Counted from the first letter of the stretch, positions 9,140 to 48,406 are shown. The stretch: DNA of 64,000 nucleotides from Spirochaetia bacterium (GCA_024402405.1 JAKSTW010000001.1:77190-141189); one strand, 5' to 3'. Notes: generated from the sequence alone by a model not told the origin. Program-made: numbers and translations.

Positions 9140-12000
9140 TTCAGCACCTCCCAGTTCTGCGGATCAAAAATGTTGTCATGAACCTCGTAGATATCAAAAT
9201 CAGCATTGCCAGTCCTCAAAAACTTGGAAGATGAATCATACCGGACAGTAGTTACAATCCTATTATCCGGAATAATCACAGGAATATCATCAACCGCATT
9301 TTTCAAAAACTTTGACGCATCGCTGGAACACATCAGTTTATCGCTTTTCTTTAATTCATCACAAGAAGAAAATTTTTTTACCATAAGAAGAGAATTCAAT
9401 CGACTATTTATTTTAGAGCTAACTAAAGGGTTGTCATTTTCATAATCATTCCCATGATCTGACAACAAAATTATATATGTATTGTCATAAATCCCATTAG
9501 CTTTTAACCAATTACACCATTGAACAAATGACCTAATAAATTCCAAAGCGCTGTAATATGCACTATTTCCTGCATAATAGCTATTTTTATTTTTATCTGG
9601 AAATTTTCCTTCAGCAACAAGAGTTCCATTATCATCAACCCCATATGGGCTGTGTGGAAGGCTGTTATGAAAATATTTAAATGTATTATTTTCTATCTCA
9701 ATATTCGAAATTTCAGGAAGTAACTTCATAAATCCATAATTTTTTAATACATGCTCACGGACAGACCAATATAAAGCAGAAGTTGAAAAAATAAACCAAC
9801 AACTGTCATTATAAATCACTGGTTTCAGGAAATATGGTGAATTCTGAAAAATAGAAAGCATTATAAAAAGATGTCCTTGATTTATCCAATTAACGTTTTT
9901 GCTTCCACTATAGTATTTCTGTTCCCAGATTTTTCCAAAAATATCAGAATCGGTACTGACAGTTCCTTTAAGCGTATCTTTTTCCAAAGATGAAGATCCA
10001 GGATTTACAACAGCAATTGAATAACCATGATTAGAAAAATTATCAAACATAATCCGAGCAGACTCCTGAATAAGTTCGTTACCATTTTTCCCCATTTTAG
10101 TCATGGCTATAGGCAGATACTCTTCTCCGGCAAAAATAGACGGCATGGAACATACTGTTTTCCAAGAAGCTGCAACTGTATTCCTGTACCATGTAAATCC
10201 ACTCAGGATCTGTTCATATTCAGGATTTTCCTCAATAATGCGCTGCATATATCCGCCGGAGAACATATCCGCTACAAACAGCACCACATTCTTGCCAGTT
10301 CTGGAATAGCCGTTTATGACATCATTATCAGCAGGGATCTCAACCAATTCTTTTTCAGGAGGCAGATACATATCCGCAGAACACAGATATTTCACAGTTT
10401 TAATACCTGTAAGTATCAGAAGGCAGCAACATATCACAGCAACCACATTCCTGCACTGAACCAAATAATGCCTGATAAAAACCACTGACAGTACAGAAAG
10501 ACAACCAACAACAAGCAGATCACGTATCAGCAGAAACAATGATCTATCCTCAAGTTTTTCTGCCATGCTAAGCATGGTCTTGTCCAGTTCCCCGTAATTT
10601 CCAGGGAAAATATATCTGTAGACTATCACAGCCATAACAAGGAACATAGAGACTGCGGCCATAGCATGACGTCCGGACTTATCAGCAAAATTAAAAATAA
10701 GGAATGATAAAAGGATCAGACACAGGAATACAGGTATATCTGAAAACAGAAGATTCCATATAGAAATACCAGTCTCAGCAGGAGAAGAGAGAAAAATCTG
10801 AACAGGCCATACCAGGGTCACCAGACCGGCAAGAAACAGGACATTCCAGATATAAAGGCTTTTTATATTTTTATCATCTGTGCGACCCACAATATCTTTT
10901 TTCCCCAGAAGATATGCTGTCGCCATATAGATCAATATATCCGCAGATATGGCTGCAATAAAAATAATTTTCTTCAGAAGAGGGCCATCAGCATCCTGTA
11001 ATTTGAGAATAAAACCTGTCCCTGAAACAGCCAGAAACAGAAGCCCTGAAAAAAGTACTTTCACAAAAGGAGCAATGCTGCTTCTTTTCTGTCTGAAATT
11101 CCGATACCAGCACCACAGAAATATAAATACCAGAATAAAAGCAAGCAATGCTATGCCATAAAACAGATGTTCAAACTGTCTTTTATGAAAGATCAATGCA
11201 CGGCACTGAAAAACAAACAGCAGGAAAACCCCAAGTGCAGTACAGAAACCAGGAGTCAGGCATGTGCATACCTCGTCCTTTATCATTCTGATATAGTCTC
11301 TGAGACCTTTTTCATTTTCGTCAGGCACATACTTCTCGTGAGGGAACAGCCGCAGGAAGATAAGGCTCTTTCCCACAGAAAACACATTGTTCATAGTCCA
11401 GTAGAGAACCAGTGCGGACGGACTTCCATAAAGCAGCAGCAGGAAAACTCCGGCCATTACATACAGTTCCACAATATCACGGAACCGGCTCCCCTTCATG
11501 TAGATGCTGGAAGAGACAATGTTTATCAGGGTCATCGCTACCGGAAGGGCGTTGATACCGAATATAAGCCCATCTGGTCTGGCAAAGTCATTTATGAACC
11601 ACCAGCTGACACCTCTGTATGGCTCATAATGGCTCAGAAGATGATACGCAGCAAAGAAAAAAGGTATCTGTATCAGCAGTCCGAAAGATGTTCTGAATGA
11701 CGATGCGGCAGTATATCCCTCCAGCCGGTGAGTAGCTTTGGTAAGACAATACCGTTTCTGACCGCTATAGTATTTCTTGATATGATCAAGCCGCCGCTTC
11801 ATACGTTTTTCCACAGCCTGTTCCTTGCGTTTCCACACCTCTGCTATGTAGAACAGCGGAAACATTATTATTGTGACACTGAGGCTGAGAAGTATGATGG
11901 AGACACCGAAATTTCCGGTCAGTTTCACATAACTGCAGAACAGGAAACTCAGAACAGTCTCTATCGGTCTGATTATGATCAGATATATAAATTTCAGCAT
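9136..12000 (-). CDS. Large membrane protein: YidC/Oxa1-like insertase core (N-term) + extra TM segments + alkaline-phosphatase-superfamily (LtaS/sulfatase-like) ectodomain, copy 1
   Basis: 954 aa. Residues ~25-215 align by eye with Bacillus SpoIIIJ/YidC: NFGVSIILLSLSVTIIMFPL, CL..LIQIPFFFAAYHLL, ALVLYWTMNNVFSVG. The YidC groove Arg is replaced by Thr. The central region has >=6 further TM helices. The C-terminus has NVVLFVADMFSGG and IILLSDHGNDYEN metal-site motifs. The protein ends ...NWEVLK. Confidence 0.6.
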   Translation of the reverse strand: MLKFIYLIIIRPIETVLSFLFCSYVKLTGNFGVSIILLSLSVTIIMFPLFYIAEVWKRKEQAVEKRMKRRLDHIKKYYSGQKRYCLTKATHRLEGYTAASSFRTSFGLLIQIPFFFAAYHLLSHYEPYRGVSWWFINDFARPDGLIFGINALPVAMTLINIVSSSIYMKGSRFRDIVELYVMAGVFLLLLYGSPSALVLYWTMNNVFSVGKSLIFLRLFPHEKYVPDENEKGLRDYIRMIKDEVCTCLTPGFCTALGVFLLFVFQCRALIFHKRQFEHLFYGIALLAFILVFIFLWCWYRNFRQKRSSIAPFVKVLFSGLLFLAVSGTGFILKLQDADGPLLKKIIFIAAISADILIYMATAYLLGKKDIVGRTDDKNIKSLYIWNVLFLAGLVTLVWPVQIFLSSPAETGISIWNLLFSDIPVFLCLILLSFLIFNFADKSGRHAMAAVSMFLVMAVIVYRYIFPGNYGELDKTMLSMAEKLEDRSLFLLIRDLLVVGCLSVLSVVFIRHYLVQCRNVVAVICCCLLILTGIKTVKYLCSADMYLPPEKELVEIPADNDVINGYSRTGKNVVLFVADMFSGGYMQRIIEENPEYEQILSGFTWYRNTVAASWKTVCSMPSIFAGEEYLPIAMTKMGKNGNELIQESARIMFDNFSNHGYSIAVVNPGSSSLEKDTLKGTVSTDSDIFGKIWEQKYYSGSKNVNWINQGHLFIMLSIFQNSPYFLKPVIYNDSCWFIFSTSALYWSVREHVLKNYGFMKLLPEISNIEIENNTFKYFHNSLPHSPYGVDDNGTLVAEGKFPDKNKNSYYAGNSAYYSALEFIRSFVQWCNWLKANGIYDNTYIILLSDHGNDYENDNPLVSSKINSRLNSLLMVKKFSSCDELKKSDKLMCSSDASKFLKNAVDDIPVIIPDNRIVTTVRYDSSSKFLRTGNADFDIYEVHDNIFDPQNWEVLK

Positions 12001-12004
12001 GAGA

Positions 12005-12448
12005 TTATGGTCTTACAACATCTCCATTGACGATCTTTATGACCTGGGTCGTGGAAATGCCCTGTGTACGAGGAACCACGATCACACGCCCCTGCCTGTA
12101 CAGATGACCGAACCAGTATTTCACATATTCCATATCATCTGCGGCAATGAAAAGAGCATCTATTCTGTACTTATCCATAAAATCATTGACTGCCTTCTCA
12201 TCATAGGCATGAGGTCCCCAGCTGCGGTCCACAATAACTGCATCATCCACATATCTGCAGGATCTGATTATTTCCAGCCGCTCTTCCTGAGAGAATATCG
12301 GTCTTCTTTTTTCCTGTTCTGTGAGAGCATCGGAATCAATGGTAGCCACAACTTCTCTGAACATTTCCTTGGCCCGTTTAAGGAGCCTCACATGACCTAC
12401 ATGAAAAAGGTCAAAAACTCCATTCACAGCACATCTGTCGTATTTCAT
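12005..12448 (-). CDS. tagD: Glycerol-3-phosphate cytidylyltransferase (GCT/TagD family; CDP-glycerol synthesis)
   Basis: 147 aa; GVFDLFHVGHVRLL (HxGH), RYVDDAVIV and PRTQGISTT motifs match TagD/GCT-family cytidylyltransferases. Confidence 0.65.
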   Translation of the reverse strand: MKYDRCAVNGVFDLFHVGHVRLLKRAKEMFREVVATIDSDALTEQEKRRPIFSQEERLEIIRSCRYVDDAVIVDRSWGPHAYDEKAVNDFMDKYRIDALFIAADDMEYVKYWFGHLYRQGRVIVVPRTQGISTTQVIKIVNGDVVRP

Positions 12449-20148: not shown

Positions 20149-21603
20149 TCACAGCCTCCCCATTATAGCCACAGGCTGAATCTTCACAGCTACGGAAACA
20201 GGATAGATCCAGGATAAAGCACCGATTATGGCAGCTCCTCCAAGATGCAGCAGGATATTTTTCAAAGTAACTGCAGGAACCAGCATATCTCCACCGAACA
20301 TAGTGATCAGCAGAGTGTTGTGCAGCTCAATACCACCTGAAAAAGCCATGGAAATAATTATTCCCAGAATGATACCGACTACAGCTGCAACCATCGTCAG
20401 GAGCATAGACTCCGCAATGAAAAGGGCACTGATAAATGGCTTGCCGGCACCGATACCTCTCATGGTACCTATCTCATAACTTCTTTCCAGAACAGAGATC
20501 ATGAGGGCATTCATAATAACAAGAACAGCCCCTATAATGATAAATACGATACCCACATTAAATGCTGCCTGAAGGGCAAACACCATCTGAGCGCTGAGCC
20601 CTGCACCCTGCCTCCAGCTCCGCACATTGACAGACAGCTTATTTTCCGCATCAAGATTCCGCAGTTCCTTCATCAGCTGCCCGCGCTCTCCGTCAGCAGC
20701 CCTGAAAAGCACATAGCTCCAGGCATTGGAAGCTTCTGCCGACATGGCATCCCGTTCTGCAGTATCAGCCAGCAGAGCTTCTATGAAATCAAGGGAAAGT
20801 GCATTGCTGTCTTCCTCAACCACATCGGATGCATCATCAAAAAGATCATCCATATCAAAATCATCAGAAACTGCTCCGCTGTCTCCGGTATCTCCGCTGT
20901 CAATAATATTTCCGGCAGTATAATCAATCAGTCCTCTGACAATAGAAGGATCGGCCAGTACTATGGCATCAAACGGAGCAACCCGATTCACATATCTGTG
21001 ACATCCGGCAAAAACGCCTTTGCGGATCTTAAAACTGCCATTGGAATAAAGGCTGAGTTTCAGATCCTCACCTATGGCGATCTTTCTATTAAGTTTCCTC
21101 TCAATTTTCCGCAGCAACGGCTGGCACAGGAATATTCCGCCATTGGAAATATCTGAAGGATCTCCCTTCACTATCTCAATGGCAGAACACACATTGAAAT
21201 AACTTTCCGGAACTATTCCGAATACAGCCGCAGCCGAGCGGAAATCACCGATTTCCACAGCTGCAGCCGCAGATACTACAGGACTGTAAGATTCCGCATA
21301 CTGCAGACTGCCAAGCATCGGCTCTATTTCCGAATATCCCATAATAGACGGAATGACTTCATAATCATCCACCACCGGTATTTCATTGCCGAACAGACTG
21401 AAAGAAGATTCAGTGGCAGCTCCCATCACAACATCACCGGTAAGGCTGCTGACAAATGAATCTTCCACCCCTTTATTAGCACTGGCAAAAATTGCATTGG
21501 CAAAAAACAGGAATGCCATGCCCACTGCAATCAGAGTCCCCAGAAGCAGAGTTTTTCGAGTATTTCTTCTTAAATTACGTAAAGCAAGCTTTAAAATAAG
21601 CAT
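20149..21603 (-). CDS. ABC transporter permease, FtsX/MacB/LolCE family (second)
   Basis: 484 aa; MLILKLALRNLRRNTRKTLLLGTLIAVGMAF start, Asp/Ser-rich periplasmic insert, C-terminal FtsX domain. Confidence 0.75.
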   Translation of the reverse strand: MLILKLALRNLRRNTRKTLLLGTLIAVGMAFLFFANAIFASANKGVEDSFVSSLTGDVVMGAATESSFSLFGNEIPVVDDYEVIPSIMGYSEIEPMLGSLQYAESYSPVVSAAAAVEIGDFRSAAAVFGIVPESYFNVCSAIEIVKGDPSDISNGGIFLCQPLLRKIERKLNRKIAIGEDLKLSLYSNGSFKIRKGVFAGCHRYVNRVAPFDAIVLADPSIVRGLIDYTAGNIIDSGDTGDSGAVSDDFDMDDLFDDASDVVEEDSNALSLDFIEALLADTAERDAMSAEASNAWSYVLFRAADGERGQLMKELRNLDAENKLSVNVRSWRQGAGLSAQMVFALQAAFNVGIVFIIIGAVLVIMNALMISVLERSYEIGTMRGIGAGKPFISALFIAESMLLTMVAAVVGIILGIIISMAFSGGIELHNTLLITMFGGDMLVPAVTLKNILLHLGGAAIIGALSWIYPVSVAVKIQPVAIMGRL

Positions 21604-22460
21604 TTATACTGTCTGCAAAATTCCTCATAATCCTCATAAGGGGATGTATAAGTATAAATCTGATAATACGGACGGTTAGTCCAGTATCCATACAAATCAC
21701 ATTTCTCAGGAAAACTCTTATCCGGAAATGCCTCTTTTTTCAGAGTAAGAACAGGACATCTTTTCTCACCTACAAAAAACTCCTCAGGGATAGTTCTGCA
21801 GAGCAGATCTGAGACTTTGTTTATCCTTTCTCTGAACTGATCCAGGTCAAAGTTCTTGAGCACCTTATGGAAATGCTCATAGATATATGTAGGTGTGGTG
21901 TATGGAGTCTGGTTCTTATCTCCCCAATCCTTGAAAATGCGCAGGTTGAGATATGAGATCTTATCACTGTCCACGCAATATTTCCACTGGTCTTTCTTGA
22001 CACATACCACAGCCAGTCCTGTATAAGACCCCAGCTGCTTATTCAGGCAAGTGCAGAAGATCCTTGTATTCTTAGGTGTGGAATAATATGGAAACGCACT
22101 TACAGCATCAAGAACACATCCTTCTTTATAAAAAGGAGCGGAGACACTGCTCTCAAGACGGCAGCACAGATCCACATCAGGGCAGCCTGCCGGTTTAGGA
22201 TAATTCTCCAGCATACTGGTCCACCGTTTTTTGAAAGATCCGTCATTGCCGATGACAGTTATATTATAGTTCATGGAGAACATAACAGCCTCCACACCAA
22301 CTGTGGCACTGCCAGGAATGAAAATCACATCATAATCATCAAGATCGAATTTTTTGATGAAAAGCTCTTTTACCTCGCCAAAAAGCTTATAGAAAGCCTG
22401 ATCTCTGTGAGATCCATTGATAACTACATTATCAGTAAAATATGTGTTTGGCCCGAACAT
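21591..22460 (-). CDS. Hypothetical protein; N-terminal half resembles the class-V (AGXT/PhnW-like) aminotransferase fold but is short and lacks an obvious PLP-lysine motif
   Basis: 289 aa; DDYDVIFIPGSATVGVEAVMFSM...VIGNDGSFKKRW resembles ...GSGTFAVEAVI...NGAFGERW of AEP/serine-pyruvate transaminases; similarity judged by eye only. Confidence 0.25.
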   Translation of the reverse strand: MFGPNTYFTDNVVINGSHRDQAFYKLFGEVKELFIKKFDLDDYDVIFIPGSATVGVEAVMFSMNYNITVIGNDGSFKKRWTSMLENYPKPAGCPDVDLCCRLESSVSAPFYKEGCVLDAVSAFPYYSTPKNTRIFCTCLNKQLGSYTGLAVVCVKKDQWKYCVDSDKISYLNLRIFKDWGDKNQTPYTTPTYIYEHFHKVLKNFDLDQFRERINKVSDLLCRTIPEEFFVGEKRCPVLTLKKEAFPDKSFPEKCDLYGYWTNRPYYQIYTYTSPYEDYEEFCRQYKCLF

Positions 22461-22469
22461 AACATCCTC

Positions 22470-23699
22470 TTATCTCTGGTTGACTTCCTGCTGAACCTTC
22501 ACCAGAAAATCCACAATGCTCTTTCCGGCACAGCCTCTGTTCTGCCATGCCTGCTCCTTGGCATCTATCCGGTTCTGTTCAGACTGACGGCTGTCAGTAA
22601 CTTTTTTTATTATATCACCAATACAGGCGAAATCTTCTTCTCTCAGTTCATATCCTATCTTCGGCAGAATCTGGAACTGCCATAACTGGTGCGGCACTTT
22701 TCCGGCATCATAAGGTCGCGGATCAAATTCTCCCACAGCAGATAAAAACGGTTTTCCACGCAGGAACGCATAATCAAGCGTAATACTGGAAAAATCAGAA
22801 ATCATTATATCAGCTTTTGCAAGAGAAACAATATTATCAGGCTCAAAATCCCAGCTGAAATCAGGATTATCCCTATACCGATCCTGCAGCCGCTCCAACA
22901 TCTCCCGTTCCACCTGCTTTGACTGAGGATGAGGCCGGACGATCACTTTGTATCCGGTAAGAGCCAGCGCATCCAGCAGTTTCTCGCCGTACATGGAGAG
23001 AAGCCCGCTTTTACCCCAGGATGGTGAGACCAGAACTGTGAACGGATGCTCAGCAGGAATATGATCCCTGATCTTCTCAGCCAGCACATCCAGATATGGG
23101 GAACCCACTGTCACCAATCTTTTCGCCGGCAGTCCACGCAGCTTCTCAAGATAGCGGATATCCTCTTTCTGATAATCTCCTGAGAGAAGTACAGAATCAA
23201 AATAATCCAGACCATACCGCTTATACAGCGTGGCATCATTCACCATATGAAGCACATGACAGTAATGGCTTACACCTTTGGAACGCTTCAGCTGAAAGAC
23301 ATCCAGCCCAGGAGTAGTCATCAGGCATACATCAGCCTCCAGAAGATTCAGTCTGGCAAAAGCCCTGTTTCCAGCACCTATGAACTCAGGTCTCACATGC
23401 TCCCATTTCCGGTCAAACACCAGATCATCCTCAGCTGAGGTATAATAAACCACATCAATATGTCTGTTTTCAAACTCTTCCAGTACCGGACGGAATGTAT
23501 TCCAATACTGTTTTCCCTCGCTGTAGATCACAAATGGAAGTTTTGTTGTCTTTACAACATATTTCTTTCCGGCAAAGAAAATCTTTATTTTTATCCAGAC
23601 TGCCCGGAGTCCGAAGAACGCCAGCGCAAACAGGCTGATGATCACAGAGAACAGCATGCTTCCAGTACCTGGATCTATATAGAGGAACGGCACTGTCAT
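22470..23699 (-). CDS. TagF/TagB-family CDP-alcohol:polyol-phosphate transferase, copy 2 (paralogue of 7904..9139)
   Basis: 409 aa; same N-terminus (MTVPFLYIDPGTGS vs MMHFSLLYLDPGTGS), RPHPQ motif, DYAFL motif; ATGA overlap with upstream YidC-AP fusion copy 2. Confidence 0.65.
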   Translation of the reverse strand: MTVPFLYIDPGTGSMLFSVIISLFALAFFGLRAVWIKIKIFFAGKKYVVKTTKLPFVIYSEGKQYWNTFRPVLEEFENRHIDVVYYTSAEDDLVFDRKWEHVRPEFIGAGNRAFARLNLLEADVCLMTTPGLDVFQLKRSKGVSHYCHVLHMVNDATLYKRYGLDYFDSVLLSGDYQKEDIRYLEKLRGLPAKRLVTVGSPYLDVLAEKIRDHIPAEHPFTVLVSPSWGKSGLLSMYGEKLLDALALTGYKVIVRPHPQSKQVEREMLERLQDRYRDNPDFSWDFEPDNIVSLAKADIMISDFSSITLDYAFLRGKPFLSAVGEFDPRPYDAGKVPHQLWQFQILPKIGYELREEDFACIGDIIKKVTDSRQSEQNRIDAKEQAWQNRGCAGKSIVDFLVKVQQEVNQR

Positions 23700-26269
23700 T
23701 TCAGCACCTCCCAGTTCTCAGCTTTGAAAATACTGTTTTTGATCTTGTACTTCGGCTCATATTTGAAAGCATTCTTATAATGCTCATTGGCTTCCACAGG
23801 TCCTTCAATCAGCAGGATACCCTGCTCTTTCGTATTGCGGCTGAAAAGTGTACCGGTGAAAGGATTGGCCGGTTCAGCACATATCCCGTCAGTCGCCAGA
23901 CCAGGAATATCAGCAATGCACATGAAAGAATCGTCAGTCCTGACATCACCGACAGCATTGAAATCCTTATACAGCAGAAGTGCATTATACCCCATCAGCT
24001 CCTTAACATCAAAATCTGTGACGATCCTGCTATTATCTATTTTCCGGCCATGGTCAGATGCAATTATTATTCTGGTGTTATCATAAACACCATGATCTTT
24101 CATCCACTGGAACCAGACTCCAAGCATACGGATACTGGCAGCATTTATATGGAAATGCCGGAATGTCACATCCGAACCGAATATATTCTCTCCCCTATCC
24201 CCTGCTTCCGGACGCAGCTCATATTCAGGAACATGCATCCATGCCGGCTCATGGGTAGTATCATTCTCTATGGCAAAATACTGGTCACCATCGCCCTCCA
24301 GATCAGACAGTTCCGGCAAATAATCCAGGGCAGAATACCATTTGATGAGGGTAGAATATTCATCTTTTTTCTTATCAGCATCAGAACTCCACCATGTTCC
24401 GTGATAATAAAGTATGCCTCTCAGCGATACAGGGCAGACCCTGAAAAAGTCAAAGAACAGAAAATTCCTTCTGAGTGAGTCAGACAATTTCCACCCGGTG
24501 ACCTCCATGTCATGCTCTTTTCTCCACAACGCAGCATAACGGCTGCTGAGATTCACAGCATACATATCTTTGCTGAAAATGGAATTATCAGGTATCCAGC
24601 TGTAGTTTGCCAGAGGAGCATCAGTTATGGTGATGTCATATCCATTATTCTTGAAAAACCGTGGAAGCACATTAAGCGCCTCATTATGTTTATCGATCAG
24701 AGACTGCTCCTGCCTCTGATTCATATATTCCGGAAGATAATCATATCCTCCGAACAATGAAGGCGCCGCCAGAATAGTGTGGGTACCAGCAGAAACCGTA
24801 TCAGGATAATAGACAAATCCGGAGAACTGCTCCCTGCAGTCAGGTATGGCTTCCAGAATATCAGGGAAAAAAGAATTTATTCCGCGGTCCAGCATTATTA
24901 CCATAATATTTTTGCCCGTCCGGCTGAAGTGATAGACTGGGGAAATCTTCTCCGTACCATTGTTTCCTTCAGACATCATGATCTTATCTATTCGTCTGAA
25001 CTCACTATTGATCTTAAATATATTGAGACATGAAAAAGCAGCCAGTGATATCACAAGCAGAGCACATATATTCTTGACCCATACAAACTTTTTTTTCTGA
25101 AATAAAATAAGAACAGCAGAAAAAACTATTGCCAGCACCAGCAGATCCATCGGGAATTTTGCCAGCTCATTGGCGATCTTCAGTCCGTTTTCAAAATAGA
25201 GCCCGTTATCCACCAGGACAGTGCCATAATCACCCGGGAAAATATAAGTGTTCACCAGCGCACATGCGGCAGCAGAGAACATCAGAAAAGTGAATACTGT
25301 CTGAGTCTTGCGTGAAAACAGGAAATAAAGCCCTATACACCATGCTGTGATACCCAGTGACTGGAAAAACGGAAATTTCAGCAGAGACAGAGGATTTCTG
25401 AATGGATCAATATATGAAAATTCGGAAACCGAAGAACATATAAGCGAAGAAGGAATCACCGCACCCACAAGGAAAAGCAATATCAGACAGGAGAAAAAGA
25501 AAATCAGGAACCTTGCCCTATTCTCCTGATACAGAGGCCGAAGCGGTTTCTTACATACTGACAGGAACTTATCCAAAGTTTTTCTGCAGCATTCAGGCTC
25601 CCGGAATCTGATCTTATAACATATATTCTTGCACAGTGAGAAAACATTGTTCAATGTCCAGTAAAAAACCAGACCGGCAGGTGAATCATACAGCAGCACC
25701 AGAAACAGTCCGGCCATACCATACAGCTGAATTTTTTCTTTCAGTGAAAATCCCTTCACATAGATGGCACTGGCAATAATATTAATAACTGTCATGGCCA
25801 CAGGCAGCACATTCACCTGGAAATTTCCTATGCTGAAGAGCGCATCAGGAGCCCCCAGATCTTCAAAACACCATAAGCTCTGTCCCTTGAGCATCTCCAG
25901 GTTGGAGAGATAGACATAAGCGGCAATAAAGAACGGCACCTGAATCATCAGGCTGATGGAACTTCGCAGTGCCATTACAGGATGATAATGGTTCTGCCGG
26001 TAAAAGGTGGAGAGTATCATATACCGCTCATCACCCTTGAACACAGCCTTTATCTCATCTATCTCCGGTCTGAATACTTTCTGGATATCCCGCTCCTTCT
26101 GCTGCCATCTCTCAGCTATGATATACAGAGGCAGAGAAAGAAAGCTGACAGCCAGACTGACCGCGGCAATAGACACACCGCAGTTGTCCGTAACCTCATA
26201 AGTCAGCTGGAACACCAGTTCAATGAGAAGCTCAATAGGATAGATGAAGATCAGGTACAGAATGTTCAT
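23696..26269 (-). CDS. YidC/Oxa1-like core + polytopic TM region + alkaline-phosphatase-superfamily ectodomain, copy 2 (paralogue of 9136..12000)
   Basis: 857 aa. N-terminus has CGVSIAAVSLAVSFLSLPLYIIAERWQQKE...LMIQVPFFIAAYVYL...GLVFYWTLNNVFSL (YidC-like; groove Arg replaced by Ser). C-terminus has VIMLDRGINSFF and IIIASDHGRKIDN motifs. The protein ends ...NWEVLK like copy 1. Confidence 0.6.
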   Translation of the reverse strand: MNILYLIFIYPIELLIELVFQLTYEVTDNCGVSIAAVSLAVSFLSLPLYIIAERWQQKERDIQKVFRPEIDEIKAVFKGDERYMILSTFYRQNHYHPVMALRSSISLMIQVPFFIAAYVYLSNLEMLKGQSLWCFEDLGAPDALFSIGNFQVNVLPVAMTVINIIASAIYVKGFSLKEKIQLYGMAGLFLVLLYDSPAGLVFYWTLNNVFSLCKNICYKIRFREPECCRKTLDKFLSVCKKPLRPLYQENRARFLIFFFSCLILLFLVGAVIPSSLICSSVSEFSYIDPFRNPLSLLKFPFFQSLGITAWCIGLYFLFSRKTQTVFTFLMFSAAACALVNTYIFPGDYGTVLVDNGLYFENGLKIANELAKFPMDLLVLAIVFSAVLILFQKKKFVWVKNICALLVISLAAFSCLNIFKINSEFRRIDKIMMSEGNNGTEKISPVYHFSRTGKNIMVIMLDRGINSFFPDILEAIPDCREQFSGFVYYPDTVSAGTHTILAAPSLFGGYDYLPEYMNQRQEQSLIDKHNEALNVLPRFFKNNGYDITITDAPLANYSWIPDNSIFSKDMYAVNLSSRYAALWRKEHDMEVTGWKLSDSLRRNFLFFDFFRVCPVSLRGILYYHGTWWSSDADKKKDEYSTLIKWYSALDYLPELSDLEGDGDQYFAIENDTTHEPAWMHVPEYELRPEAGDRGENIFGSDVTFRHFHINAASIRMLGVWFQWMKDHGVYDNTRIIIASDHGRKIDNSRIVTDFDVKELMGYNALLLYKDFNAVGDVRTDDSFMCIADIPGLATDGICAEPANPFTGTLFSRNTKEQGILLIEGPVEANEHYKNAFKYEPKYKIKNSIFKAENWEVLK

Positions 26270-27015
26270 TTGAATTTCTTAAGGACTCCATGAAAAGCAT
26301 AATCTGCAAAATTCATACAGGACTCAGCCAGAGGCATATTCAGTTCCTTGCGGTAAATGTTCCATGTCCATGAAACAGCTGACAGTTTGCTGCCAGATAC
26401 GGACTTGCTGCTTTCCCTGTAATATGCCTCTACCGTACAGGTGTTCATGGCAATCAATCCCTTCCGCAGGATCTCCAGCCACATGAGATAATCTTCGTGA
26501 TGAATCTCTTTCTGATATACCTTTCCCACCTTGGCAGTATCATACATACCGGTAAGATTTCCAATGCAGTTTCCTTTCAGCAGCTGCCTGAAATTCACCT
26601 CGGCAGGAGATTTTACAATACTTTCATGAAGATTTCCATCCTCATTCATTTTTCTGTAATAAGAGAAAACGACACCGCACTGCTCGTTCTTAAACAGCGG
26701 CAGCTGATGTTCCAGCTTCTCAGGCATCCATATATCATCGCAGTCAAGGAAAGCAATATATCTTCCAGAACTTTTTTCGATCCCGATATTTCTCGGTGTT
26801 GCAGGCAATTTTGTACATTTCGGGTTATGATAAATCCTGATACGGCTATCTTTTCTTATGAAATCACAGACAATATCAATGGAATCATCTGTGGAGCTGT
26901 CATCAACTATTATAAGTTCCCAATTACCATAAGTCTGGTTTATAACAGAATTAACAGCATCACCTATTGTCTTTCCACCATTATGACAAGGCATAATTAT
27001 TGAAACATCAGGCAT
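26266..27015 (-). CDS. GT2-family glycosyltransferase
   Basis: 249 aa; VSIIMPCHNGGKTIGDAVNSVINQTY...LIIVDDSSTDDS (GT-A fold, DXD at FLDCDD). Confidence 0.7.
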   Translation of the reverse strand: MPDVSIIMPCHNGGKTIGDAVNSVINQTYGNWELIIVDDSSTDDSIDIVCDFIRKDSRIRIYHNPKCTKLPATPRNIGIEKSSGRYIAFLDCDDIWMPEKLEHQLPLFKNEQCGVVFSYYRKMNEDGNLHESIVKSPAEVNFRQLLKGNCIGNLTGMYDTAKVGKVYQKEIHHEDYLMWLEILRKGLIAMNTCTVEAYYRESSKSVSGSKLSAVSWTWNIYRKELNMPLAESCMNFADYAFHGVLKKFK

Positions 27016-27049
27016 TTTTCCTCCTGTCTTTTATTTTAATCTTTTATTT

Positions 27050-28516
27050 TTATTTAAAAAGATATTTCCTCAATTTTGAAAAAGCCTTTAATGATCTTTT
27101 CAGATCATCCGGATCAGTAAGCCCGACTCTGAGCCGGTGGAGAATGTAACGGAAACGAAGATAATATTTCTTTCTGGCAGTATTACAGAACTCCACCATT
27201 TCGTCAGCACTTAGCCCGGGAAGATTGAGCACTGTATTGTGAGTTCCATCTTCCTTGCAGTAGTGCTCATAGTCAAAAGTCATATATCCATTCTCACGGG
27301 CCCATTCGTATCCTTCAGTTCCAGGATATGGAATCAGCGGGAAAAACTGGGCAGTATCAGTATTCAGTCTCAGTGCCAGCCTCAGAGTCTCTTCCATGGT
27401 CTCTTTTGTCTCTCCCTTATTGCCAACCATATAGCAGGCATGGATAAGAAGACCGGCTTTTTTGGCATTTCTCACATATTCATATACCTGTTCCAGCCTG
27501 ATTCCTTTTTTGATATTATCCAGGATCTGCTGGCTGCCACTCTCGAAGCCTGGAATGATCAGACGGCAACCGGCTTTTTTCATCAGCTTCATAGTCTCAA
27601 GATCCAGTGTGTTGGCTCTGGCATTGCACAGCCATTTCAGACGTTTCTGCAAGCCTTTCTCAATAAGGAGCTGGGAAATTTTCTTTACCCGGGCTTTATC
27701 AATGGTGAAAGTGTCATCTTCAATGACCACTTCCTTTACATCAGGAAAATTGGCAGCAATATACTCAAACTCAGACACCACACTTTCAGGACTTCTGGCC
27801 CGGAACCGGTGACCATGCATGACCTGTGGATATACACAGAAAGTGCAGTGGCATGGGCATCCTCTTCCTGTGAAGATCTGTACAGACGGATATGTGGCCG
27901 CAGCGAAAAAATAATCACGCTCATTCAGATTTTTTTTGATGAACTCCGCCGCAAATGGTATATCATCCATATCCTCCACAGGTGGCATTTTAGGTGTGTG
28001 AACAAAGCTGCCGTTCCGGCGGAAACACAGGCCGCGCACACCATCAAGTGGCTTTCCGGCATCCATAGCATCAGCAAGTTCGCGCACTGTATAATCGAAC
28101 TCCCCTATTGCAGCAGCATCAATCTTATCGCTATAGCCCAAAGTTTCCTCTGGGCATGCCGTAGGATGAGTTCCAACCAGCAGTACAAAAGAATTCTTAT
28201 AAGCAGCCTTAAGTGATGCACCAAAAGCAACATCGCTCTTTATGGATGGTGTACTGGTGTCCAACACAAAAAGAAGCTTTTCGCCAGGTTTTGCCATTCC
28301 AGCGACAAGTTCAAGAGTCTGCTTTTCATTCAGCGGCTTTGCCGGAGCATCGATAAAATCGACCTTATGACCATACTTCTGGGAATACGCCGCAGCATAG
28401 ATAAGCCACAGCGGATAATAAAGAGCTCCGCTTTTGGTTATGGCCGGACTTCGGCTCTCCCGTGAAAATTTTCCATACTCTGCCTTGAACGGCGGATTTA
28501 TAAAAATAATATGCAT
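27050..28516 (-). CDS. B12-binding (class B) radical SAM enzyme
   Basis: 488 aa; N-terminal cobalamin-binding-like Rossmann region, then radical-SAM cluster motif GRGCPCHCTFC (CxxxCxxC) and a TIM-barrel-length C-terminal region. Confidence 0.65.
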   Translation of the reverse strand: MHIIFINPPFKAEYGKFSRESRSPAITKSGALYYPLWLIYAAAYSQKYGHKVDFIDAPAKPLNEKQTLELVAGMAKPGEKLLFVLDTSTPSIKSDVAFGASLKAAYKNSFVLLVGTHPTACPEETLGYSDKIDAAAIGEFDYTVRELADAMDAGKPLDGVRGLCFRRNGSFVHTPKMPPVEDMDDIPFAAEFIKKNLNERDYFFAAATYPSVQIFTGRGCPCHCTFCVYPQVMHGHRFRARSPESVVSEFEYIAANFPDVKEVVIEDDTFTIDKARVKKISQLLIEKGLQKRLKWLCNARANTLDLETMKLMKKAGCRLIIPGFESGSQQILDNIKKGIRLEQVYEYVRNAKKAGLLIHACYMVGNKGETKETMEETLRLALRLNTDTAQFFPLIPYPGTEGYEWARENGYMTFDYEHYCKEDGTHNTVLNLPGLSADEMVEFCNTARKKYYLRFRYILHRLRVGLTDPDDLKRSLKAFSKLRKYLFK

Positions 28517-28523
28517 ACAAACC

Positions 28524-29354
28524 TCAATATTTTCCGAAATCCAGTTCTGCCACCTGGTGAGTCGTGCGCTGCTCTACAGGAGGCAGTTTCATATAATCAC
28601 CGAAAAGTTCTGTAAGAAATTCATGGGATTTTTCCAGAACCATGAATGTGTCATCCTCAAAAGGGAACTCAGTGAAACCGTCAAAAAGATATGCACTGCG
28701 CATCTCCCGCGGGATGCCATACCGTCCCGAAAGATAAGCCATAGTATCAGTCTTTTTCCTATTCAGTCGGTATGGATAATTTATGATGGTATGCCGCAGC
28801 CATTTTTTCGGAACCCAGAAGAAACATATCTTCATGCATTCGGCAACAAATCGTTTAAGTTTTGTGGTACCGTTATGATAGCCATTCTTCATGGAATAAA
28901 GAACTACGCAGAAATTCAGAAAGCAGAAATAAAATTTTGCCAGAAATTTACTGTCATAGATAGTGTCGTATGGGAGAACATCCACCAGAAAGCCTGTATT
29001 CCCCAAAGTCTCCGGCTGCTGAACACTCCGGTAGCTGGTACCGTTAAGCACCACCTTGGCAAAGAAAGTCCCTACTTTCTCATTCTGCTGGATGCACATA
29101 AGTGAGAACTCCGGACTCAATTCTTCAGGAGCAACTTTCAGAAAACGGTCATAATCTTCCCGGAGCATGGCAATGTCAATGTCATCATCCCATGGTATGA
29201 AACCTTTATGCCGTACAGCACCTATCAAAGTACCTCCGGTAAGGAAATATTTTATATCGTGCTTTGCGCAGACTCTTTTTATCTCTTTAAGAACTTTCAG
29301 TTCCAGAAGCTGGACTTTCCTGAGTTCTTCAGGCGTAAGTTTTTTACTCATCAT
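28524..29354 (-). CDS. licD: LicD-family phospho-alcohol transferase (canonical)
   Basis: 276 aa; DIKYFLTGGTLIGAVRHKGFIPWDDDIDIAM is an almost consensus LicD motif. Confidence 0.8.
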   Translation of the reverse strand: MMSKKLTPEELRKVQLLELKVLKEIKRVCAKHDIKYFLTGGTLIGAVRHKGFIPWDDDIDIAMLREDYDRFLKVAPEELSPEFSLMCIQQNEKVGTFFAKVVLNGTSYRSVQQPETLGNTGFLVDVLPYDTIYDSKFLAKFYFCFLNFCVVLYSMKNGYHNGTTKLKRFVAECMKICFFWVPKKWLRHTIINYPYRLNRKKTDTMAYLSGRYGIPREMRSAYLFDGFTEFPFEDDTFMVLEKSHEFLTELFGDYMKLPPVEQRTTHQVAELDFGKY

Positions 29355-30713: not shown

Positions 30714-31727
30714 TTACTCATTTTTCTTTTTCCTCATGCTGCGGATCAGATCATGTATCATATCTTCCAGATTTTTTTCAGGATGCCAGCCCAAAGCTTC
30801 CAGTTTTGAGGAATCCAGCTGCAATCTGACAACAGGGTTATATCCAAACCTGGCAGCATCTTCAGCCAGATCAAAAATCACCCGGCTGCCGGAATCAGGA
30901 TATAACTGACAGAAAAGCTTTGCCATATCCGCAATGGATACAGTCGTACTTTTATTTGCTATATTATACGCCTCTCCGGTCTCTCCGGAAAGAAGAACCG
31001 CCATAATTCCAGTTACAGCATCTGAGACATGACAATAATTCCGGACTGTCTCACCACGAGTCTTCAGAATAATATTTTCATGCTCAATAATACTTCTGGC
31101 AAACTGTGCGAATACCCGCCCGTCATCATATGCAACTCCGTCCCCGAAAGTCTGTGCCAGCCGTGCTATCTTAACCGGAATTCCATATTCTGCGGCATAA
31201 GAACAGCACATGCACTCACATAACCGTTTTCCCTCAGAATAACTGGAACGGATAGAAAGAGGATCGGTCAGTCCATAATCTGTCTCGGCAACATTCCTGA
31301 CTTCAGCATCATCAAACTTTCCATAAACTTCCAATGAACTCAGATACACAAAGCCTTTCAGCTTTTTGCCTATGCACTGATCAAGGAGATTTATTGTTCC
31401 CTGAACTGCTGTTTTTATAGTCTCCACAGGCTTTTTTACAAAGCTTATGGAAGATGTTGTACTTGCTGCATGGATAATATGATCAGCAGCACAATTTCTG
31501 ATATCCAGAGTACATATATCCCCATATACAGGCACAATATTATTCAAATCACAGCCCGAAAAGCATGATCTGAACTTTTCCTCACTGCGGCAGCAGGCAT
31601 AGATTCTGATCCCGCGGTTCTCTTCTCTGTTCAATCTGTCCAGAAAAAGAACCAGACGGCTGCCTATAAGACCAGTAGCTCCGGTAATGAGCACCGCTGT
31701 ATCTTTCAGTTCCTCAAACATCATCAT
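30714..31727 (-). CDS. NAD(P)-dependent epimerase/dehydratase-fold reductase (extended SDR), probable partner of the IspD-like cytidylyltransferase (CDP-polyol synthesis)
   Basis: 337 aa; VLITGATGLIGSRL Rossmann motif, YSEGK catalytic motif; ATGA overlap with the IspD-like gene. Arrangement parallels the two domains of Haemophilus Bcs1 (CDP-ribitol synthase). Confidence 0.55.
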   Translation of the reverse strand: MMMFEELKDTAVLITGATGLIGSRLVLFLDRLNREENRGIRIYACCRSEEKFRSCFSGCDLNNIVPVYGDICTLDIRNCAADHIIHAASTTSSISFVKKPVETIKTAVQGTINLLDQCIGKKLKGFVYLSSLEVYGKFDDAEVRNVAETDYGLTDPLSIRSSYSEGKRLCECMCCSYAAEYGIPVKIARLAQTFGDGVAYDDGRVFAQFARSIIEHENIILKTRGETVRNYCHVSDAVTGIMAVLLSGETGEAYNIANKSTTVSIADMAKLFCQLYPDSGSRVIFDLAEDAARFGYNPVVRLQLDSSKLEALGWHPEKNLEDMIHDLIRSMRKKKNE

Positions 31728-32440
31728 ATCCCGAAGATCTGCTGGTTCTCACGGACATCATAAAGAGCCCGGAATGTATAGAAATCAGCAGGAGTTGTTA
31801 TCTTTATGTTGTCAAAAGTACCCAGAACAGTATAGAGCTCATTGCCGTAATACCGCATAAGGCTGGCAGAATCTATCATGTTAAACTTGCCATCCTTTAT
31901 TGCCTGTTCATGGGCTTTCAGTATGTCACCAAGATAAAAACACTGTGGCGCTTTGGCATGGTAACACTTGCTCCTGTCAGTGATAGTCTGGATCCTGTTT
32001 CCATCTGTGGTAACTATCGTTTCGATAGCCGGAGTCACGGTGATGGCAGAACCATGCGCTTTCACAGAATTGATGCAGGCAGAGATAAGCTCATCATTCA
32101 CCAGGGGCCGCACACCGTCATGGATCAGCACAATGGAATCATCCGGTGCAAACTCATGTATGGCTCTGAGTCCGTTATAAATGGATTCCTGACCTGTTTT
32201 TCCACCGGGAACCACCGCCTTTACCTTATCCAGCTCATATTTATCCAGCAGTTTTTTCAGCGCCGGGATCCAAGGCTCCAGGCAGGCAATCACAATATTG
32301 TCGATCTCATGATGATACTGGAAATTCTCAAGTGTATGAATGATTATCTCCTTGCCATACAGTCTGAGAAACTGCTTAGGCTTGGATTTGCTGTTCATTC
32401 GGCTTCCTGAACCGCCTGCAAAAATAAGCACATTATTCAT
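31724..32440 (-). CDS. IspD/TarI-family cytidylyltransferase (ribitol-5-phosphate or related polyol-phosphate cytidylyltransferase)
   Basis: 238 aa; IFAGGSGSRMNSKSKPKQFL matches the IspD/TarI GGxGxRM...KQ(F/Y)L signature. Confidence 0.65.
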   Translation of the reverse strand: MNNVLIFAGGSGSRMNSKSKPKQFLRLYGKEIIIHTLENFQYHHEIDNIVIACLEPWIPALKKLLDKYELDKVKAVVPGGKTGQESIYNGLRAIHEFAPDDSIVLIHDGVRPLVNDELISACINSVKAHGSAITVTPAIETIVTTDGNRIQTITDRSKCYHAKAPQCFYLGDILKAHEQAIKDGKFNMIDSASLMRYYGNELYTVLGTFDNIKITTPADFYTFRALYDVRENQQIFGI

Positions 32441-48326: not shown

Positions 48327-48406
48327 TGAATTTATAATGTTCCAACCCTGATCTATATCCTTTGAGAGATAGGTACAATCACAGAAACATCGATAGCACC
48401 CATATA

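Follow-up and report, generated by a model that had tools for sequence, protein, structure and literature searches.

TagF/TarF enzymes (PF04464; S. epidermidis TagF, PDB 3L7I-3L7L) are peripheral membrane proteins with a cytoplasmic GT-B domain, and enzymes of this type normally modify lipid-linked glycans that are moved by other exporters. On the opposite face of the membrane, LtaS/LtaP, EptA/MCR-1/EptC, OpgB, GacH, BcsG and the regulator PbgA/YejM share five transmembrane (TM) helices followed by an extracytoplasmic alkaline phosphatase (AP)-fold domain. The known enzymes of this group use bulk phospholipids, and PbgA is a lipid-binding regulator, not a transferase. YidC/Oxa1 insertases (PF02096; B. 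halodurans YidC2, PDB 3WO6/3WO7) carry in TM1 a conserved groove arginine (R366 in E. coli and R72 in B. halodurans), which serves protein insertion. The GtrA/GtrB/GtrV, ArnC/ArnEF/ArnT and LTA (YpfP, LtaA, LtaS) systems follow a common logic, in which a lipid is loaded in the cytoplasm, passed on by a flippase and used by an outward, acceptor-specific transferase. In vitro, E. coli YidC acts as a phospholipid scramblase (PMC11047089). The Pnt pathway of Treponema denticola, with PntC (Tde1415) and CMP-AEP, was described by Rice et al. 2019 (PMC6697681); that paper terms the steps after Ppm "enigmatic," names, among the genes of the neighborhoods, LicD-like phosphotransferases or glycosyltransferases alone and is silent on TagF-like, YidC and sulfatase genes.

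Here we describe a two-gene unit of a TagF-like transferase and a YidC-phosphotransferase fusion, which is widespread yet unstudied. We count 589 or more species genomes with the module, the majority from Treponema, and ~2,100 clusters at 50% identity. It occurs twice in the window, by which we mean the whole 64,000-nucleotide stretch of DNA analyzed, and positions 22470-26269 are an intact second copy of it (cassette 2; Table 1). Both cassettes have the same Pfam architecture, PF04464 in the TagF-like protein and PF02096 plus PF00884 in the fusion. The module's probable role is the addition of glycerol-phosphate-like groups to the surface of the spirochaete cell. The window also contains two Wzx flippase genes and an ABC-2 exporter.

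Table 1. Positions of the two cassettes, their predicted domains and neighboring genes in the window
Feature	Position	Strand	Description
TagF-like gene 2	22470..23699	-	409 aa; paralogue of 7904..9139
Fusion gene 2	23696..26269	-	857 aa; YidC-like domain, five-TM bundle and periplasmic AP-superfamily domain
YidC-like domain of fusion 2	25613..26269	-	aa 1-219; five TM helices, cytoplasmic C1 hairpin, without groove arginine
Five-TM bundle of fusion 2	24971..25522	-	aa 250-433; resembles membrane domain of LtaS, EptA, PbgA
Periplasmic AP-superfamily domain of fusion 2	23699..24937	-	aa 445-857; predicted Thr nucleophile, Asp / Asp-His metal ligands
Translational-coupling junction, cassette 2	23696..23718	-	23 nt, AGAACTGGGAGGTGCTGAAATGA
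TagF-like gene 1	7904..9139	-	411 aa; paralogue of 22470..23699
Fusion gene 1	9136..12000	-	954 aa; paralogue of 23696..26269
Translational-coupling junction, cassette 1	9136..9158	-	23 nt, identical to cassette 2 junction
TagD-like cytidylyltransferase	12005..12448	-	147 aa; directly upstream of fusion 1; PF01467 at 75.5 bits
LicD, cassette-2 operon upstream gene	28524..29354	-	upstream block 26266..29354
B12-binding radical SAM protein, cassette-2 operon upstream gene	27050..28516	-	
TuaG-like GT2, cassette-2 operon upstream gene	26266..27015	-	stop overlaps fusion-2 start by ATGA
Last gene of cassette-2 operon	21591..22460	-	289 aa; weak class-V aminotransferase similarity (AepZ, SerC)
IspD-like + SDR pair	30714..32440		5-8 kb from cassette 2

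Ancient paralogues passed on as pairs

The preliminary description presented cassette 2 as a diverged copy of cassette 1 that did not arise by recent nucleotide-level duplication, and our alignments bear this out. The four open reading frames were recovered on the minus strand at the lengths given in Table 1, together with the matching TagF N-termini (MTVPFLYIDPGTGS and MMHFSLLYLDPGTGS), the NWEVLK ends and the ATGA overlap at both junctions. The TagF-like proteins align end to end with 138 of 411 residues identical (34%; E, 4e-76). The fusion proteins are 27% identical globally, with 39% identity in the YidC-like part (residues 1-270; E, 3e-56) and 24% in the TM and sulfatase-fold part down to the last residue (E, 1e-36). 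Homology therefore spans the full length of the proteins and is not limited to a shared generic sulfatase domain. The ~100 residues that fusion 1 has in excess form hydrophobic segments, located after the YidC-like domain and ahead of the five-TM bundle. At the DNA level just two short similar patches were detectable. One, in YidC TM5, covers 100 nt (74%); the other covers 60 nt of the junction (80%) and includes a 23-nt exact match (100 shuffles gave a longest match of 12 on average and 16 at most). The near disappearance of DNA similarity indicates that the duplication is old.

Both cassette-2 proteins have their nearest relatives in locus L001 (69% and 65% identity), and those of cassette 1 lie in L079 (81% for TagF-like 1 and its counterpart there, and 53%) and in the T. 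putidum locus L067 (44% and 29%). Because the nearest relatives of both partners are found in the same foreign loci, the two genes travel together, and we conclude that the cassettes are ancient paralogues of two subfamilies, each passed on as a pair. Fusion 1 has a subfamily of its own, in which relatives at 50-59% identity are numerous and to which the T. denticola protein P0318 belongs. A same-strand fusion gene lies within 150 bp of 46 of the 54 TagF-like genes, and both gene orders are seen (34 versus 12). Both genes are present in 35 of 44 fully flanked loci, and the fusion gene has no TagF-like gene within 8 kb in 9 of the 44. There are one to four fusion paralogues per TagF-like gene, many genomes having two to four. 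A deltaproteobacterium has the pair as an isolated two-gene unit with a 4-bp overlap, and a TagD-like gene and an ABC importer are located 4-6 kb from it. Glycan loci that contain Gtr-like systems also harbor the module; in L084 it shares one operon with PMT_2, GtrB-like and GtrA genes. The best-conserved parts are the TagF-like N-terminal motif and the YidC-like domain (0.92 and 0.68), the least conserved the five-TM bundle and the AP domain (0.42 and 0.50).

Architecture of the TagF-like and fusion proteins

PF04464 matches TagF-like 2 with 33.8 bits and TagF-like 1 with 39.5 bits (cutoff, 22.1), in both cases over part of the protein (residues 181-326 and 121-327). The AF2 model of TagF-like 2 (pLDDT, 86.2) has the two Rossmann domains of a GT-B fold, and its top three Foldseek matches are the TagF structures 3l7l, 3l7j and 3l7k (E, 6e-12 to 2e-11; TM, ~0.53), followed by generic GT-B enzymes. 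TagF is thus the best structural match, although the TagF-like proteins are only 16-18% identical to it and had no sequence-level PDB match, even by profile. Residues Y7, D9-S14, H151, W228, R255, Q259, D302 and S304 are invariant in 54 of 54 relatives, and H148 and H257 are conserved in 53. The His, SPSWG, RPHPQ and ISDFSG motifs are placed like those of the TagF family, and H148, H151 and H257 are candidate counterparts, matched by motif, of the catalytic histidine pair of S. epidermidis TagF, H444 and H584. The catalytic domain is predicted to be cytoplasmic, as in TagF/TarF, and a TagD-like gene adjoins cassette 1. In contrast to these peripheral proteins, the module's enzyme has a short periplasmic N terminus with the motif YIDPGTGS and a single TM helix followed by basic residues (N-out), and its gene forms an obligate pair with that of the fusion. 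Some homologues have a cleavable-looking signal peptide that ends exactly before Y[IL]DPGTGS. Fold and motifs together identify the protein as a predicted TagF-family (GT-B) CDP-alcohol phosphotransferase with an N-out TM anchor and an invariant periplasmic Y[IL]DPGTGS tip.

The first domain of the fusion scores above the PF02096 cutoff of 35 (70.6 bits in fusion 2 and 82.6 bits in fusion 1) and below that of TIGR03592 (71.1 and 79.4 bits; cutoff, 84.3), and all YidC equivalog models are far under cutoff. The five-TM core with its cytoplasmic hairpin is present. However, the groove arginine of the insertases is absent in 107 of 107 relatives, and TM1 has no R or K at any position; the equivalent residue is S42 in fusion 2, T in fusion 1 and T, S or N in 102 of the 107. 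The fusion also differs from YidC/Oxa1 in having no ribosome-binding tail; its C-terminal continuation consists of ten more helices plus an enzyme domain. The database name "YidC/Oxa1 family membrane protein insertase" is probably misleading.

The AF2 model of fusion 2 (pLDDT, 85.9) has fold matches to PbgA, MCR-1, EptA, LtaS/LtaP and YidC2, those over the full length being PbgA (6xlp, the best), MCR-1 (9nww) and EptA (5fgn). Model helices and K/R distribution place residues 220-249 and 392-394 inside and 280-292 and 344-371 outside, and the positive-inside charge counts agree with the model and the full-length fold matches in showing an AP-fold domain outside the cytoplasm, after five TM helices. 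PF00884 matches fusion 1 with 39 bits and fusion 2 with 24.7 bits, just below the cutoff of 25. The fold by itself does not separate LtaS/EptA-type enzymes from sulfatases. Residues D461, T498, D739 and H740, as well as H673, are invariant in 107 of 107 relatives (~40% identical) at canonical secondary-structure positions, and we assign the nucleophile and metal ligands by motif and position, not by superposition. Shared with the LtaS/EptA-type enzymes are the Thr nucleophile at a helix N terminus, the Asp after the first strand and the DH(G) metal motif. A T-x4-P-x2-F spacing is also common to the fusion, EptA and MCR-1, and EptA-like T-x4-P spacing is found in 88 of 107 relatives. The C/S-x-P-x-R formylglycine motif of sulfatases (CxPxR) is absent from both fusion proteins, which, with the invariant Thr as the nucleophile, rules out a type I sulfatase. 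On these sequence features the periplasmic domain matches the EptA/LtaS phosphotransferase type. Orthology to LtaS was rejected (NF053595 gave 20.6 bits for fusion 1 only; cutoff, 970). Unlike these enzymes and PbgA, the fusion has an N-terminal YidC-like domain, and its gene is coupled to that of a CDP-alcohol transferase in the cytoplasm.

Donors, acceptors and a possible relay

The TagD-like protein scores 69.9 bits with TIGR01518 (glycerol-3-phosphate cytidylyltransferase), under the cutoff of 165. The trio of TagD, fusion and TagF-like genes recurs in L079, L082 and L083, with relatives ~50% diverged, and this stable linkage points to CDP-glycerol, of which the TagD-like enzyme is the probable supplier for cassette 1. 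TagD was beside cassette-2 relatives in 0 of 78 loci; in other genomes such relatives adjoin LicC-like/CobD-like fusions or phosphonate (PEP mutase) genes. NTP-transferase/CobD-like fusions are neighbors of the module in 20 loci. Relatives of the module lie beside PEP mutase/phosphonate genes in 13 of 78 loci, and phosphonopyruvate decarboxylase and PntC-AEPT genes are found in 8 of 78 each; all three kinds occur in L085, there as a compact operon. These are genes of the Pnt pathway, but the window has no PEP mutase and the link is one of neighborhood in other genomes alone. Because relatives adjoin phosphonate or amino-alcohol activation genes, the donor range of the TagF-like family is probably wider than CDP-glycerol. 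In L001 the closest relative of cassette 2 is surrounded by the same gene set as the cassette-2 operon, including a 68% identical counterpart of the 21591..22460 protein, which had no Pfam match and whose NCBIfam match (E, 1.4e-8) is far under cutoff.

The two active sites are predicted to lie on opposite faces of the membrane in a self-contained unit, which would call for an intermediate that crosses it. We hypothesize, with somewhat less than even confidence, a relay of inside loading, crossing through the YidC-like groove and outer transfer. At the cytoplasmic face, a CMP-activated donor would give up its phospho- or phosphono-alcohol, which the TagF-like enzyme would attach to a membrane lipid or glycolipid; this donor would be CDP-glycerol for cassette 1 and possibly a CDP-amino-alcohol or CMP-phosphonate in relatives. 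The charged head group would then cross through the hydrophilic groove, with the TagF-like anchor docked nearby, and the periplasmic domain would accept it as a covalent Thr-phosphoryl intermediate and pass it to a surface glycan or glycolipid. Making the donor and delivering it would fall to the conserved TagF-like and YidC-like parts, and selection of the acceptor to the periplasmic part, which is variable and often present in several copies; the two cassettes would represent two donor/acceptor combinations. Gtr, Arn and LTA systems likewise combine a conserved donor part with a variable, multiplied outer transferase; in the module, however, the cargo would be a phospho(no)-alcohol in place of a sugar, the YidC-like domain proposed as flippase is part of the same protein as the outer transferase, and the lipid intermediate is hypothetical. 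The loss of the groove arginine in all relatives, the scrambling activity of E. coli YidC and the varied donor genes beside the module (TagD, NTP-transferase/CobD-like, PEP mutase/phosphonate) count for the relay. So do the homology and architecture of the cassettes, the invariant catalytic residues, the topology with the AP domain outside and the TagF-like domain inside, the tight linkage of the two genes, the isolated deltaproteobacterial unit and the pattern of conservation with its multiplied fusion paralogues. We consider it unlikely, at present, that an Oxa1-superfamily fold was recruited from protein insertion to the transport of a lipid-linked phospho(no)-alcohol head group through the membrane, directly fused to the consuming enzyme and docked to the one that makes the group. 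If true, the module would be a self-contained three-step machine and the missing transferase stage for decorating Treponema surface glycolipids with glycerol-phosphate, amino-alcohol-phosphate and phosphonate (AEP/HEP).

Counting against the relay are the usual action of TagF-type enzymes on glycans moved by other exporters, with Wzx flippases and an ABC-2 exporter present in the window, the nine fully flanked loci without a nearby TagF-like gene, the fold's failure by itself to tell LtaS/EptA-type enzymes from sulfatases and the fact that PbgA, the best structural match, is a regulator. The exporters and the nine loci, together with the setting in glycan loci with Gtr-like systems and the fact that LtaS and EptA enzymes require no dedicated donor synthase, fit a somewhat unlikely account without a relay. 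Here, the TagF-like enzyme would decorate or polymerize on an Und-PP-linked glycan in the cytoplasm for export by Wzx or ABC-2, the fusion would independently transfer PG/PE head groups to the same glycan (like LtaS, OpgB, GacH and EptA), and the YidC-like part would be an inherited scaffold. This leaves unexplained the near-obligate adjacency in either order, the isolated deltaproteobacterial unit, the YidC-like domain being the most conserved part of the fusion, and the phosphonate/amino-alcohol donor genes, for which an ordinary phospholipid donor is not expected.

The preliminary description also suggested that the cassettes serve either two polyol-phosphates or two acceptors. Glycerol-P fits cassette 1, next to TagD, but nothing ties cassette 2 to ribitol-P. 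A difference in acceptor is no less likely than one in donor: in many genomes two to four fusion paralogues accompany each TagF-like gene. A difference in donor only, with glycerol-P for cassette 1, ribitol-P for cassette 2 and the same acceptor logic, would agree with the TagD gene and with the presence of the IspD-like + SDR pair in the window, but is distinctly unlikely. LicD, the radical SAM gene, GT2 and an unrelated ATPase gene separate that pair from cassette 2, and the adjacent LicD could itself use CDP-ribitol, as LicD-family enzymes can. Moreover, cassette-2-type loci elsewhere have amino-alcohol/phosphonate donor genes and not IspD or TagD, and the periplasmic domains (24%) are more diverged than the TagF-like enzymes (34%), which argues for acceptor differences.

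The YidC-like domain could instead be a private insertase or assembly chaperone that inserts either the TagF-like N-out anchor or the ten helices of the fusion itself and keeps the two enzymes together, with no substrate transport. The YidC fold is intact, the TagF-like N-terminal motif and TM helix are invariant, and a short N-out tail followed by a single TM helix is the classic YidC-only type of substrate. We regard this role as improbable, as the groove arginine is missing throughout, two to four insertase copies per partner are hard to rationalize, and homologues with Sec-type signal peptides, whose tails are expected to be translocated without YidC, still pair with a YidC-like fusion. 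That the fusion is a noncatalytic PbgA/YejM-like lipid or glycolipid sensor regulating the TagF-like enzyme is very improbable despite the top full-length match to PbgA, given the invariance of the Thr nucleophile and all metal-ligand positions in 107 sequences and the prevalence of EptA-like spacing.

The gene junction

NWEVLK had been taken for a possible functional or sorting motif of the family, a reading refuted by the alignment of relatives: N-W alone is conserved (W in 107 of 107), and what follows is variable, 3-16 aa long. In both cassettes the 23 nt AGAACTGGGAGGTGCTGAAATGA encode N-W-E-V-L-K-stop and hold a perfect Shine-Dalgarno sequence, GGAGGTG, along with the ATGA overlap. Judged by this sequence, the NWEVLK codons are the predicted ribosome-binding site and start overlap for the downstream TagF-like gene.

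Inheritance of the two cassettes

The preliminary description reported a second TagF-like plus fusion cassette at 22470-26269. The fusion protein joins a YidC-like domain, five further transmembrane (TM) helices and an alkaline-phosphatase-fold (AP) domain. The window derives from a Spirochaetia metagenome-assembled genome, and the proteins match NCBI entries at 100%. The four ORFs of the two cassettes (table) are indeed homologous over their full length. TagF-like 1 and 2 are 34% identical end to end (pairwise alignment, E 4e-76), and the fusions share 39% identity in the N-terminal YidC-like part (E 3e-56) and 24% in the remainder (E 1e-36). The last alignment extends to the final residue, so more than a generic sulfatase domain is shared. 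The Pfam domain architecture is the same in both cassettes, and in both the gene junction is an ATGA overlap. DNA similarity is limited to two short patches, and hence the duplication is old and, as had been noted, not a recent nucleotide-level event. dN/dS is meaningless for these cassettes, because protein identity is only 24 to 34%, DNA similarity is confined to the two patches and synonymous sites are saturated.

The paralogues inside the window are merely 27 to 34% identical, whereas closer relatives exist in other genomes (loci designated L). For both cassette-1 proteins the closest relatives lie in L079 (81% and 53%) and in the second Treponema putidum pair (44% and 29%), and for both cassette-2 proteins in L001 (69% and 65%). 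The split between the cassettes thus predates these lineages. Because the paralogue-specific nearest neighbours fall in the same foreign loci, these comparisons indicate that each TagF-like/fusion pair is inherited, or moved, as a unit. We prefer this result to the significant Mantel correlation between TagF-like and fusion distances (r = 0.65, 0 of 2000 permutations), since shared species history can yield the same signal.

The earlier interpretation is partly supported: it stands for the ancient paralogous cassettes and fails for the C-terminal NWEVLK as a sorting motif. Only N-W is conserved at the fusion C-terminus (W in 107/107 relatives), and the tail that follows varies in sequence and in length (3 to 16 aa). 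Relatives of the cassette-1 subfamily (type 1) end in NWQVTK or NWKVIK, those of the cassette-2 subfamily (type 2) in NWEKLK. The last six codons and the stop of both window fusions are an identical stretch of 23 nt, AGAACTGGGAGGTGCTGAAATGA; the longest match in each of 100 shuffles was 12 nt on average and 16 nt at most. Within the shared stretch lie the ATGA overlap and, five bases ahead of the TagF-like ATG, a perfect Shine-Dalgarno sequence, GGAGGTG, and other loci having the 4-bp overlap carry GGAG-like sequences inside the terminal codons. Given these signals in the tail codons and the variable tail of the family, the shared NWEVLK reflects a signal for translational coupling or a short gene-conversion tract, not sorting. 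Convergent selection and gene conversion are indistinguishable here as sources of the match.

Coordinates of cassette genes, predicted protein parts, related loci and island genes
Feature	Location	Strand	Details
TagF-like 1	7904-9139	minus	411 aa; PF04464
Fusion 1	9136-12000	minus	954 aa; PF02096 + PF00884
TagF-like 2	22470-23699	minus	409 aa; PF04464
Fusion 2	23696-26269	minus	857 aa; PF02096 + PF00884
Exact 23-nt match AGAACTGGGAGGTGCTGAAATGA	9136-9158 and 23696-23718	minus	in otherwise saturated paralogous cassettes
YidC core	fusion 2 aa 1-219		five helices + cytoplasmic hairpin (AlphaFold2)
Five further TM helices	fusion 2 aa 250-433		after polar cytoplasmic helix (AlphaFold2)
Alpha/beta domain	fusion 2 aa 445-857		AlphaFold2
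TagF-like homologues with cleavable-looking signal peptide	L064:1247-2578; L067:10630-12012; L081:11030-12400; L084:5691-7004; L085:654-1955		L067: T. putidum type-1
IspD + SDR pair	30714-32440		glycan island
Stealth hexose-1-phosphate transferase	33819-34844		glycan island
ABC-2 exporter	43252-45551		glycan island
CotH kinase-like protein	46215-48410		glycan island

Predicted structure and active sites of the two enzymes

The AlphaFold2 model of fusion 2 (pLDDT 85.9) has three parts. By charge counts, the last of them faces outward, and the hairpin and aa 220-249 face inward. Fold searches gave full-length matches to PbgA, MCR-1 and EptA. D461, T498, H673, D739, H740, K768 and D787 are invariant across 107 fusion relatives, and the C/S-x-P-x-R motif that defines sulfatases is absent from the fusion. 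The invariant threonine and metal-ligand residues and the missing motif rule out a sulfatase and mark the outer domain as an EptA/LtaS-type phosphotransferase or phosphodiesterase with a Thr nucleophile. Conservation within the protein is highest in the YidC-like domain (0.68, compared with 0.42 and 0.50 elsewhere). In contrast to YidC insertases, every one of the 107 relatives lacks the defining groove arginine and has T, S or N instead, and no member has basic residues in TM1 of this domain.

Databases label the fusion proteins simply 'YidC insertase'. In public gene calls for L079:4534-10328, both fusion genes are cut down to 'sulfatase' products (776 and 796 aa), and 119-aa antisense ORFs cover the YidC-like part. 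The apparently 'YidC-less' sulfatase-only relatives P0291, P0295 and P0296 are start-codon miscalls; tblastn finds the whole YidC-like part upstream in L079, where both genes are intact at full length. Counts of the fusion will come out too low in domain censuses that rely on such calls.

TagF-like 2 was modeled as a GT-B enzyme (pLDDT 86.2) whose best structural match is TagF. This match came from the fold search alone; TagF was not among the PDB sequence matches of either the protein or a 20-sequence profile. Its His, SPSWG, RPHPQ and ISDFSG motifs are invariant. Within the first 14 residues of TagF-like 2 stands Y[IL]DPGTGS, a motif that does not vary in 54/54 relatives; one TM helix and then a basic stretch follow it. 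Most TagF-like proteins, including both window copies, have only 2 to 9 residues ahead of it. Five homologues (table) carry a cleavable-looking signal peptide that ends in (A/F)xA directly before the Tyr, which argues that the motif is a periplasmic N-terminus and the catalytic domain cytoplasmic. Y[IL]DPGTGS thus looks like a functional free periplasmic N-terminus. Its use, with the TM helix, as a portable anchor on other enzyme classes was rejected, as within the window and the 78 loci it is confined to TagF-like genes. In this topology the active sites of the two enzymes lie on opposite faces of the membrane.

Distribution, donor genes and a possible relay

Fusion relatives occur in at least 589 genomes (scan with one genome per species), and the matches of a profile search at E <= 1e-30 form 2,111 clusters (50% identity). 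The fusion-bearing genomes among the matches listed are mostly Treponema, T. putidum included, and other Spirochaetaceae; contigs labeled Lachnospiraceae and Butyrivibrio, a taxonomy given by the bin label alone, also bear the pair. In 78 fetched loci, the TagF-like gene lies within 150 bp of a same-strand fusion gene in 46 of 54 cases, with both gene orders represented (34 versus 12), and of the 44 loci with complete flanks 35 have both genes. In 25 of the 78, the fusion is present as two to four paralogues. The Treponema denticola locus L080 (CP051634.1, 1309411-1332254) and the T. putidum locus L067 have four fusion and two TagF-like genes in tandem; these arrays contain both subfamilies and are followed by glycosyltransferase and dTDP-sugar genes. 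In the complete genome of a deltaproteobacterium (LT599018.1, 319614-324013), the pair stands isolated, with the 4-bp overlap, amid flagellar, chemotaxis and toxin-antitoxin genes, some kilobases from a TagD-like gene and an ABC importer. The genetic coupling of the module is tight, and at least one genome has it as a self-contained unit.

None of the other window genes is a conserved neighbor in the 78 cassette-2-type loci, and TagD is found in 0 of them. The common genes near these modules encode a GT4 glycosyltransferase (30 loci), a fusion of NTP-transferase and CobD-like PLP decarboxylase (20), UDP-glucose dehydrogenase (16), an epimerase (15), cytidylyltransferase-PEP mutase (13), phosphonopyruvate decarboxylase (8) and PntC-AEP transaminase (8). 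The GT4 gene follows the TagF-like gene, and its best NCBIfam match, LTA-anchor glycolipid synthases (IagA/BgsA; 65 bits against a cutoff of 460), gives only a hint of kinship. Module relatives lie inside phosphonate operons (cytidylyltransferase-PEP mutase, phosphonopyruvate decarboxylase, Fe-alcohol dehydrogenase or PntC-AEPT) in L085, L044, L036 and L028. The compact operon of L085 (654-14201) contains the TagF-like gene, three fusion genes, PEP mutase, decarboxylase and Fe-alcohol dehydrogenase; in L084, the pair is joined with PMT_2, GtrB-like and GtrA genes. Because the donor genes beside the modules vary, several CMP-activated phospho- or phosphono-alcohols are probably substrates of the TagF-like enzymes. 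Rice et al. (PMC6697681) showed CMP-AEP to be the product of T. denticola PntC and called the Pnt pathway steps past Ppm enigmatic. The 'multiple sulfatases' beside AEP genes in Selenomonas (PMC8942020) may belong to the fusion family.

We tentatively favor, at somewhat below even odds, a three-step relay. The TagF-like enzyme would put a group onto a lipid or glycolipid inside, the head group would cross through the YidC-like groove, and the outer domain would pass the group on via a Thr-phosphoryl intermediate. YidC scrambles phospholipids in vitro (PMC11047089). A constant part would make and deliver the donor and a variable part would pick the acceptor, the same logic as in the Gtr and Arn systems; the conservation profile and the multiplication of the fusion gene alone fit this division. 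A rather unlikely alternative is that the two enzymes act in parallel. It is doubtful that the YidC-like domain is a private insertase, given the loss of the groove arginine and the signal peptide on some TagF-like partners. A PbgA-like sensor, despite the fold match, is very improbable with invariant catalytic residues.

Treponemes have no classical LPS and have poorly understood glycolipids, T. denticola whole cells give phosphonate signals, and the steps adding phospho- or phosphono-groups to treponeme surfaces are unknown (PMC3285142, PMC6697681). If true, the relay would name the missing transferases for this decoration, show the YidC fold in a new role and account for the gene multiplication in rumen and oral spirochaetes as surface variation. 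A conservative reading still puts right a systematic error of annotation and yields an enzyme pair that can be tested, and cultivable oral treponemes with tandem arrays are a tractable system for this. The parts of the module come from known families and their combination is undescribed in the literature found; we found no relevant study on YidC-sulfatase or YidC-LtaS fusions, Treponema glycerophosphotransferases or the pairing.

Surroundings of the cassettes in the window

The cassette-1 block (Bac_transf, UDP-glucose dehydrogenase, TagD-like, fusion, TagF-like) is kept in relatives about 50% diverged. Two proteins are encoded downstream, at 4736-6948: one of 332 aa has a sulfatase fold and stands alone, and the other, a GT2 with a fused GtrA-type TM domain, resembles a polyprenyl-phosphate sugar synthase. 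L079, L082 and L083 have a YfhO-family gene in their place. Between the cassettes, 16196-21603 encodes an ABC ATPase, two FtsX/MacB-type permeases and a LolA-like (TP_0789-like) protein. L082 and L083 show this region in synteny with the cassette-1 block, and it is a candidate exporter of a lipid or lipoprotein in the same pathway.

The cassette-2 operon (LicD, B12-radical-SAM, TuaG-like GT2, fusion, TagF-like and a 289-aa protein) is common to the closest relative. The B12-binding radical SAM protein (27050-28516) has its best match in HpnJ, an enzyme of hopanoid cyclitol ring contraction (394 bits; cutoff 578), and also resembles PhpK-type P-methyltransferases. Its gene is co-operonic with the GT2 (26266-27015), LicD (28524-29354) and cassette 2, a set kept in L001, and the protein may make a head group or sugar of an unusual kind. 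The 289-aa ORF (21591-22460), last in the operon, has no Pfam match, is weakly similar to AEP/phosphoserine aminotransferases and has a 68% identical counterpart in L001; it may be a PLP enzyme, either truncated or divergent.

The window from about 700 to 48400 is one large glycan island with four LicD genes, two Wzx flippases and many GT2 genes, among others (table). Housekeeping genes (metK, ahcY, Glu/Gln-tRNA synthetase, gyrA) begin at about 48.4 kb. An AAA_14/DUF4143 ATPase (29351-30577) and a Schlafen/AlbA_2-HATPase_c_4-Fic-like_C protein (32445-33794), unrelated to glycan synthesis, look like insertions between operons that interrupt the island.
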